Virus record (IMG/VR): IMGVR_UViG_2706794664_000003
Source: a virus
Lineage: Duplodnaviria; Heunggongvirae; Uroviricota; Caudoviricetes
DNA: 14,378 nucleotides
Reading direction: 5' to 3' (one strand)
Shown: positions 11,289-12,080 of the stretch, piece after piece
Numbering within the stretch: position 1 is the stretch's first letter
Layout: the number at the start of each line of letters is the position of its first letter
Notes under the pieces: model-generated
What the model was told of the DNA's origin: nothing
Databases searched by the model: none
What the model saw: the letters and a program-made list of their open reading frames with translations, nothing else
Translations under genes and position numbers: made by a program

Positions 11289-12003
11289 ACACCTTTCGGC
11301 GCGAACAGGCCCTGGTATTCATTGGCGATGCTGTGTCGAATCACCTGCTCAGGTGTAAAACCCTGCTGACGGAATTTTTCCAGTTCCCGTATCGCCCCGT
11401 TAGCGCCCTGCTCCGTTCGAATCGGTTTTCGCAATGCCTGTCTGAACCGGACCCACTCATGCCAGAGTGTTTCCGGCAACCAATCGGGCAGCTCAATAGC
11501 CTCCGGCTCGAATTTTTTAGACGCTCGTTTTTGGCGAGGGGGAGATCAGTATTTAGATCTTCCTCTTCCTCTTCCTCTTCCTCTTCCTCTGGTAACGCTT
11601 TTTGATCCGTTTGTGTAACGCTGGCAGCGTTACCTTTTCGTTTCAGTTCGCGTATTTTTGTTACTCGCTCGTTTGTAACCGCCCGTTTTTTTTTAGAGCT
11701 TTTTCCGTTATGACGTTCAAAGTTAGGTAGAGAAAGCCCACCGTCATTTTCGACCAGCCATCCAACCTGAATTAACGCATCAGCAAAACCAGACATAAAA
11801 GTGATGCGATCTATTGCACTTTTTGTAACGCCGCGAGCGTTACAATCTGCATTACCGTCTATCATTTGTTGATCCGCCCATGCCCAGAAGCGAATAACCT
11901 TCCCTAATGCGGCATCTGGATCAATATTCAGAATCTCAGCAAGCCTGAATATTTCCGGCTTATCCGGCGTAATAACCTCGAGCTTTATCCAGTTTGAAGC
12001 CAT
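11289..12003 (-). CDS. replication initiator (replisome-organizer N-domain, DnaT-like C-domain), frame interrupted and 3' end in gap
   Basis: ATG at 12003. N-terminal frame runs through an E10 tract to a stop at 11341; the continuation (FEPEAIELPDWLPETLWHEWVRFRQALRKPIRTEQG...) is in another frame and has no start of its own. One extra A in the A6 run (plus T6 at 11513-11518) joins them as ...AKNERLKKFEPEAIELPDW... Confidence 0.6.
11558..11590. repeat. hexanucleotide microsatellite (TCTTCC x5.5) encoding a Glu10 tract
   Basis: Perfect tandem repeat on the plus strand; on the coding strand GAG GAA x5 in the initiator linker. Confidence 0.9.
11615..11633. promoter_or_regulatory. palindrome GTAACGC-N5-GCGTTAC, copy C
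   Basis: Arms GTAACGCTG / CAGCGTTAC; inside the initiator linker-coding region next to the Glu tract and a T-rich stretch (11640-11700). Confidence 0.5.
11825..11843. promoter_or_regulatory. palindrome GTAACGC-N5-GCGTTAC, copy B
   Basis: TGTAACGC cgcga GCGTTACA inside the initiator N-domain coding region. Confidence 0.5.
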
Positions 12004-12016
12004 TTGTTTTCACCTT

Positions 12017-12035
12017 GTAACGCTCGCAGCGTTAC
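12017..12035. promoter_or_regulatory. palindrome GTAACGC-N5-GCGTTAC, copy A
   Basis: TGTAACGCT cgc AGCGTTACA, 13-33 nt upstream of the initiator start codon. Confidence 0.5.
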
Positions 12036-12080
12036 ATTTAACTGATACCGAACAAAACAATCCGGCACGATTAATTTCAA

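Follow-up and report, generated by a model that had tools for sequence, protein, structure and literature searches.

GTAACGC half-sites within a phage initiator gene as a likely replication origin

The DNA considered here is a stretch of 14,378 nucleotides from a Caudoviricetes virus (IMG/VR record IMGVR_UViG_2706794664_000003), referred to in its whole length as the window. It carries the immunity and replication module of a Rac-like prophage, with genes on the minus strand. One of these genes encodes a protein that matches phrog_2509, 'replication initiation protein', and will be called the initiator gene. The records closest to the locus, whose annotations read 'DNA replication protein O' or 'ydaU', are Escherichia coli prophages and phages, and the best protein matches are from Shigella. 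Relatives of the segment were found in 1,418 of 5,426 complete E. coli genomes, of which 679 cover at least 80% of it, and also in known phages, among them epsilon15, TL-2011b and CP2. The subject of this study is a set of short repeats, GTAACGC and its complement GCGTTAC, that are grouped in three clusters, A and B inside the initiator gene and C just upstream of it (Table 1).

A search of the window for the palindrome GTAACGC-N5-GCGTTAC (GTAACGCNNNNNGCGTTAC), with up to two mismatches permitted, gave exactly three matches, all of them perfect and separated from one another by 192 and 210 base pairs (bp). The initial annotation, made from the sequence alone, had pointed out these three palindromes together with a lone half-site, and had considered three copies unlikely to arise by chance. 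All were confirmed at their coordinates, the lone half-site reading GTAACGC, and dinucleotide-preserving shuffles contained a mean of 0.04 palindromes, with none of 200 shuffles reaching three. Concerning the single heptamer, nine exact copies were counted in the window, seven of which lie inside 11592–12035. The remaining two, at positions 191 and 9639, agree with a random expectation of about 1.75. Cluster A is located in DNA encoding a loop of the N-terminal domain (N-domain), at codons of about 50–60 (DGNADCNARGVT). Its third half-site is GTAATGC in the gene sense in the window and GTAACGC in relatives. The cluster B palindrome had been described as lying in linker-coding DNA beside a Glu10 microsatellite and a T-rich stretch, and each of these features was found, including a T9 run at 11686–11694 near the palindrome. 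For the cluster C palindrome, the earlier estimate of 13–33 nucleotides before the initiator ATG was close to the measured distance given in Table 1. No variation in this palindrome was seen among E. coli and phage relatives, despite differing intergenic bases nearby.

Table 1. Clusters, adjoining tract and genes of the locus. Positions refer to the window, except for the K-12 Rac repeats, which refer to locus L003.
Feature	Position	Strand	Remarks
Cluster A	11825–11855		Perfect palindrome 11825–11843; degenerate third half-site 11849–11855, 12 bp off
Cluster B	11592–11680		Linker-coding; half-site 11592–11598; palindrome 11615–11633; degenerate half-sites 11660–11666 (GTTACTC) and 11675–11680 (GTAACC)
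Cluster C	12017–12035		Perfect palindrome in the 77-nucleotide gap between ydaT and the initiator gene, 14–32 nucleotides before the initiator ATG, directly 5' of the Shine-Dalgarno sequence AAGGTGA
Polypurine tract (GAGGAA)n, encoding Glu10	11558–11590	− (gene sense)	Abuts the last half-site of cluster B
Initiator gene (phrog_2509 type)	11341–12003	−	N-domain of about 125 amino acids, then linker; frameshifted
DnaC/IstB-like helicase-loader gene (ydaV type)	10447–11322	−	Downstream partner; 5' part masked by N
ydaT (CII-like)	12081 to about 12500		
Cro-like gene	12486–12713		
cI-like repressor gene	12790–13197	+	
DUF977 gene			Same minus-strand module
K-12 Rac repeats (L003)	2803–2885, 3026–3040, 3111–3125		Linker cluster and two N-domain copies

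Relatives were found by searching with the N-domain, and about 65 related loci from several phyla were compared. The first set consisted of 60 loci on one-genome-per-species contigs (Enterobacterales, Pseudomonas, Burkholderiales, Planctomycetota, a Puniceicoccaceae bin, a Thermoanaerobaculia bin and others), the second of two divergent viral contigs, and the third of 60 phage records including TL-2011b, epsilon15, SPN1S, Xanthomonas CP2, Pseudomonas PAN70 and phiPSA1, and Ralstonia Raharianne. Offsets within the genes are mostly given with the A of ATG as 0, and some are 1-based. The GTAACGC type comprised 53 loci (Enterobacterales, Pseudomonas, Burkholderiales, Planctomycetota and metagenome bins), in which the exact heptamer was present at cluster A, about +148 to +196 (about +149 to +197 as the family-wide position), and at cluster B, about +335 to +415. 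A linker cluster equivalent to B was found in nearly all relatives, at the same position in about 60. The density of GTAACGC in the 53 loci was 13.6 per kilobase (kb) between +130 and +440 of the gene, whereas that of the flanks (0.118 per kb over 203 kb) was at the random level (0.122 per kb).

The half-sites are spaced by 11–12, 22–24, 33–35 or 45 bp, which are multiples of about 11.5 bp, and all three arrangements, > <, > > and < <, are present. Judging from these spacings and arrangements, we take the unit to be the 7-bp half-site, arrayed at a phase of about one helical turn, with the 19-bp palindrome as one arrangement of two units. Some relatives carry 4–9 phased half-sites in an array, L077, L017 and L040 having arrays of up to about nine. 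Among the relatives examined, cluster C was restricted to the E. coli/Shigella type and Pantoea sp. BAV 3049 (L021), which has four half-sites there. The upstream cluster of this Pantoea locus, at −55 to −16, matches its own cluster A, at +146 to +185, exactly over about 40 bp, which suggests that it arose by duplication of the internal cluster.

The constraint on the sites was then examined at the level of DNA. The first 330 nucleotides of the gene were compared in 40 distinct sequences whose pairwise nucleotide identities ranged from 54 to 92%. The 7-nucleotide windows with the lowest entropy were the two half-sites of cluster A, which were more conserved than Trp codons. Within cluster A, Gly was encoded by GGT in 50 out of 50 cases (background 20%) and Val by GTT in 48 out of 50 (background 26%), while AGC was used for Ser in 40 out of 40 and TTA for Leu in 33 out of 40, in GC-rich hosts. 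This usage indicates that rare synonymous codons have been fixed so as to keep the half-sites. GCGTTAC is moreover used in two reading frames, xGC-GTT-ACx (Ser/Gly-Val-Thr) and GCG-TTA-Cxx (Ala-Leu), and in the E. coli type GTAACGC sites are also found in non-coding DNA, in cluster C. The linker peptides contain 'GNAxSVT'-like units in variable number and order, which track the DNA repeats.

A second conserved feature adjoins cluster B. In nearly all lineages, (AGAGA)4–6 directly follows the last half-site of this cluster, and in the enterobacterial type its place is taken by (GAGGAA)n. The tract was found in every one of the motif classes described below, and in 45 of 63 loci no other purine run was as long. 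The codon AGA accounted for 75 of the 76 Arg codons within the tract, compared with 23 of 614 elsewhere in the gene. The + strand at the tract is strongly T-rich (AT skew −0.5 to −0.66, GC 0.38–0.47), and within the region the 180 bp around it in the window have the lowest GC content and the strongest strand asymmetry. By analogy with the AT-rich tract of lambda, it may be regarded as a candidate unwinding or loading element. As a separate observation, a stretch of about 65 bp at 11545–11610 contains three GATC (Dam) sites, which flank the GA tract and fall between the cluster B palindrome and the lone half-site; these were seen in the enterobacterial lineage only.

In divergent lineages, all copies of the motif were found to be swapped together for another one, with the layout retained. 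A Planctomycetales bin (L040) has eight copies of GTTGCGC/GCGCAAC, at +148, 160, 171 and 193 and at +337, 349, 360 and 371, and none elsewhere in its 2.4-kb contig. GTCACGC is used at both clusters in Paraburkholderia (L068) and a Rhodospirillaceae bin (L038), and at the linker cluster only in the Puniceicoccaceae bin (L066). GTCCGC(A) is used by epsilon15, phiPSA1, RPZH3, Carin1 and a Phycisphaeraceae bin (L077), and TGTAGAC, of the GTAGAC class, by Ralstonia phage Raharianne. In the Phycisphaeraceae bin, about nine GTCCGC/GCGGAC half-sites between +330 and +470 are followed by a long (AGAGA)n-type polypurine tract. Epsilon15 (L078) has two clusters of GTCCGC/GCGGAC, at +52 to +105 and +331 to +398, and then also a long tract of this type; its first cluster occupies codons 18–35 instead of 50–65. 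The motif class does not track host taxonomy, as Paraburkholderia L068 is unlike other Burkholderiales and the Planctomycetales bin L040 is unlike Stieleria (L024).

On the other hand, the motif class does track two residues (T109 and V113), four positions apart, in a conserved segment of the N-domain, HNGxxxKxRxx[T]xxR[V]. As read from sequence contexts, the residue pair is T..V with GTAACGC, G/A/S..K with GTCACGC, A..M with GTTGCGC, D/E..K with GTCCGC and K..Q with GTAGAC. The distant Xanthomonas phage SAC has retained GTAACGC, and with it the T..V residues. Since the number of independent lineages is small, we regard this covariation as suggestive.

We also examined the initiator protein itself. 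Its N-domain consists of a winged-helix-like core followed by the conserved basic segment HNGKxxKxRxxTxxRV, and had no match in Pfam, even at E ≤ 1, nor in NCBIfam. There was neither a sequence match nor a significant structural match to the Rep proteins of iteron plasmids; the only related structure, 4pta ('MDR initiator'), was non-significant (Foldseek E 0.68). The one partner of the motif that stays constant is the N-domain, which occurs joined to at least 14 unrelated C-terminal regions and is encoded by genes flanked by at least 15 gene families downstream and at least 23 upstream. In a plasmid database, the N-domain was found in only two phage-like circular records, too few to argue replicon function.

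The modularity of the protein is clearly displayed by the comparison with YdaU from the Rac prophage of E. coli K-12. YdaU and an intact relative of the window protein (L004; 266 amino acids, encoded at 2410–3210 on the minus strand of this locus, from E. coli O55:H7 strain DEC5E) have in common only the C-terminal 119 amino acids, which are 85% identical, and their N-terminal halves are unrelated. That of YdaU is a DUF1376 domain (PF07120, 2.7e-26), and the intact relative has no match to PF07120. No GTAACGC palindrome was found in K-12 ydaU. This gene contains repeats of the type CAGATGTTCAA / TGTTCAAACA, with two copies in the N-domain DNA and a cluster in the linker, which is the same layout as that of the GTAACGC sites.

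Taken together, these results establish that the sites are real and not due to chance, conserved at the DNA level, regularly positioned and phased, and that they change with the N-domain. We consider it rather likely that they are the binding sites of the initiator itself, and that they form a replication origin embedded in the initiator gene. The initial annotation had proposed dispersed initiator-binding sites, and the comparison lends support to this proposal, as the same gene positions are occupied in distant relatives, the flanks are at the random level, replacement is concerted and the repeat is swapped together with the N-domain; what changes is the unit, which would be the half-site and not just the palindrome. 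We infer that the initiator binds the sites, that cluster B together with the tract fires as the origin, and that clusters A and C have accessory roles, in the following manner. The N-domain would recognize GTAACGC heptamers, the palindromes being pairs of inverted half-sites. Cluster B and the adjoining GA tract would most likely be the core origin, where the initiator would assemble and open or distort the strand-asymmetric tract. The host helicase would then be recruited via the C-terminal domain of the initiator and the DnaC-like loader encoded downstream. Cluster A, about 200 bp upstream of B, and cluster C would be auxiliary, and might either contribute to a larger complex through looping or wrapping or allow the initiator to throttle its own expression. 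Cluster C in particular is probably a lineage-specific auxiliary or autoregulatory site.

Several points weigh against this interpretation. The E. coli type does not have four or more adjacent iterons; its linker contains a single palindrome and, besides this, one exact and two degenerate half-sites. DnaA boxes were absent near the region, and their count in the whole window was at the chance level. The initiator of the window is itself a pseudogene, as described below. The tract is GA-rich with 38–47% GC, and not clearly AT-rich. Cluster A, found in most lineages, is situated elsewhere in epsilon15-like genes and is missing in L077, Carin1 and L066, and one locus (L072) has a single site and a different C-terminal part. 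As to the N-domain, the basic segment was modelled at low confidence (predicted local distance difference test scores, pLDDT, of 45–60). A sublineage (L051, L054) combines G..A with GTAACGC and is an exception to the covariation, which rests on few independent lineages. Finally, the compared sequences are related to one another, so that the counts overstate the number of independent observations.

Among the alternatives, the one that survives best is that the initiator does bind the sites, and that these are purely operators or roadblocks in the autoregulation of the initiator and downstream genes, with the true origin elsewhere in the phage. An autoregulatory operator had also been considered in the initial annotation. 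The position of cluster C, a perfect inverted repeat just before the ATG and beside the ribosome-binding site, is in favour of this possibility, as is the small number of sites per cluster in the E. coli type. In iteron plasmids, pPS10 and P1 for example, an inverted iteron repeat is located at the rep promoter and serves for autorepression by dimers. However, most lineages lack cluster C, which among the relatives examined was seen in E. coli/Shigella and Pantoea only, while both intragenic clusters and the polypurine tract extend over the whole family. A promoter scan detected no sigma-70-like promoter in 11500–12900, so that the operator reading of the upstream palindrome is left without a promoter to which it could be anchored, and the initiator gene lies within an operon read from a promoter on the cro side. 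In addition, arrays of up to about nine phased half-sites next to a conserved strand-asymmetric tract, as in L077, L017 and L040, resemble an origin. An origin accounts better for the family-wide arrays and the tract than operators alone would, and we consider a role solely as operators unlikely.

A further possibility is that the sites are bound by another protein, either a neighbouring regulator (Cro-like, CI-like, YdaT/CII-like or DUF977) or a host factor. Several helix-turn-helix proteins are indeed encoded nearby, and palindromes are typical for dimeric regulators. The sites, however, are inside the initiator gene and outside the immunity region. Furthermore, since the neighbouring genes are wholly different among loci that share the motif and the motif variants do not track host taxonomy, a neighbouring regulator or a host factor seems improbable, more so than the operator role. 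YdaT was rejected as a candidate because its footprinted box, TTGATT/ATGATT-N6-AATCAA, is a different sequence (PMC11879457). Sequences resembling the YdaT box, with two mismatches each, were noticed at 12067–12084, at the ydaT stop and just upstream of the initiator gene, and at 12492–12509, at the junction of the cro end and the ydaT start. The latter, GTGATTCATGAAAATCAG on the minus strand, is much like the K-12 box; the window contains three such matches, not far above chance.

It could also be supposed that the palindromes act as hairpins in RNA or single-stranded DNA, with roles in messenger RNA (mRNA) stability, translation, termination or priming. Each palindrome can fold into an mRNA stem of 8–10 bp (z-scores of −2.1 to −4.1), and the complementarity of the arms is kept when the motif changes (L017 and variant lineages). 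On the + strand, 11615–11633 followed by CTTTTCGTTT (11615–11643) scores as terminator-like, antisense to the initiator gene. This one match, however, is within the chance expectation of 1.4, and in the gene sense there is no T-run and no terminator-like site. Pairing is impossible for the many half-sites that stand alone or in direct repeat (> > at 12 bp, < < at 11 bp), and what is conserved is the sequence and not pairing alone, with the same heptamer used across phyla. No Rfam family matched the region. Hairpins as the explanation of the sites are thus very improbable. As for chance, or repeated DNA as a by-product of encoding a repeated peptide GNAxSVT, clusters A and B do encode similar peptides in the same frame (GNARGVT and GNAASVT), but this explanation is excluded for practical purposes by the codon data and the use of the heptamer in two frames, and is also at odds with the shuffles, the non-coding cluster C, the linker peptides that vary along with the DNA repeats, the motif replacements that alter residues (N to H or C) simultaneously in the two clusters, and nucleotide identities (54–92%) that argue against very recent ancestry as the source of the codon bias.

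The favoured reading, an origin made up of the initiator's own binding sites, was compared with known systems. Iteron plasmids (pPS10 RepA, R6K pi and P1 RepA) have winged-helix initiators, sites spaced at about one helical turn and an inverted repeat of the site just upstream of rep, and this upstream inverted repeat parallels cluster C. They differ in that their iterons are outside the rep gene and are direct repeats of 17–22 bp.

The likeness to ori lambda, proposed in the initial annotation, holds in part. In both cases an origin-like element is found inside the initiator gene, in the DNA for the linker between a DNA-binding N-domain and a helicase-recruiting C-terminal domain. Both include palindromes of about 19 bp, a size that would suit a dimer, as well as an adjoining strand-asymmetric tract and a loader gene downstream. 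In the origins of lambdoid and Shiga toxin (Stx) phages, repeats and N-domain are exchanged together as a module (PMC7466680), and the same is seen here in the K-12 swap and the five motif classes. By contrast, the N-domain of the window protein has no detectable sequence relation to lambda O and belongs to no Pfam family. The sites here are 7-bp half-sites in mixed orientation and phased at 11–12 bp, and are distributed over two or three clusters about 200 bp apart, whereas lambda has four to six adjacent iterons. A GA polypurine repeat is found here in place of the AT-rich DNA of lambda, and one motif, GTAACGC, is retained across several phyla. On this comparison, the placement in the linker DNA of the gene agrees with the proposal, while the element appears to lack three features that define the lambda type, namely homology of the N-domain to that of lambda O, adjacent 19-bp iterons and an AT-rich tract.

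The Rac prophage of K-12 is the nearest system in terms of gene order (racR-like, cro-like, ydaT, initiator and ydaV), and has been reported to hold an active origin, oriJ (PMC3945230; reference in PMC11014345). It has the YdaU C-terminal domain in common with L004, which in the window is out of frame, and an IstB/DnaC-like loader gene downstream, and its repeats are likewise present in both the N-domain DNA and the linker. The N-domain, DUF1376 in K-12 and none recognized here, and the repeats, CAGATGTTCAA / TGTTCAAACA versus GTAACGC, are different. From their layout, the repeats in K-12 ydaU are candidate sites of the reported oriJ.

Proteins with this N-domain are encoded by epsilon15-like, Xanthomonas CP2-like, Ralstonia and Pseudomonas phages and by many E. 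coli and Shigella prophages. They are variously annotated as 'hypothetical', 'primosomal protein I', 'DnaT-like' or 'replication protein O'. A literature search found no description of GTAACGC sites or of origins of epsilon15-type initiators; its coverage was incomplete, and earlier work may exist. We put forward, with some doubt and as a tentative possibility, that these phages share a previously undescribed and widespread class of origin. It would be characterized by a winged-helix N-domain without a Pfam family, half-sites of 6–7 bp, a two-residue recognition code with at least five specificities, two clusters about 200 bp apart, and an (AGAGA)n tract replacing the AT-rich element. If the interpretation is correct, a large family of phage and prophage initiators would gain a defined origin and recognition motif. 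The natural pairs of motif and residues would amount to a ready-made experiment on the evolution of specificity, with the sites locked in the initiator's own reading frame. With its conserved GA tract, the unwinding or loading element would differ from the classical AT-rich type.

For the window itself the message is modest, as this is a decaying prophage, and its value lies more in the architecture of the origin across the family. Compared with intact E. coli relatives, the initiator gene has a 10-bp deletion (TCCCCCTAAA) just past the poly-Glu tract, with the junction at 11541–11548, between two CCCCCT repeats. As a result, the YdaU-type C-terminal domain continues out of frame in an open reading frame at 10985–11479, which enters a run of 251 N (11038–11288). 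This run covers the 3' end of the DNA for the C-terminal domain and the 5' part of the loader gene. The initiator gene of the window is a pseudogene, and due to the frameshift the sites are probably an inactive relic here, unless the initiator is supplied in trans. In a relative from Shigella flexneri (L018), the frame is shifted by a different deletion, of 11 bp.

Other observations were made in the window. The 5' end of ydaT (12460–12503) departs from that of intact relatives, the frame reading HENQA*AHRISAV... in place of MKIRHEHIESVLL...; where it meets the Cro-like gene, ydaT has lost its usual start codon and roughly its first 13 codons, or carries other sequence in their stead. A sok antitoxin RNA, as in hok/sok modules, was matched over its full length (117 bits) at 8529–8704 on the minus strand, and a cluster of four transfer RNA genes is located at 5866–6173, also on the minus strand. 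A short open reading frame on the + strand (13632–13865), a few hundred bases past the cI-like gene, resembles by eye the orfA of an insertion sequence transposase. An open reading frame of 228 amino acids (8762–9448, minus strand) in the late-early region of the prophage contains, again judged by eye, the Cys-rich motif CCAPCS.

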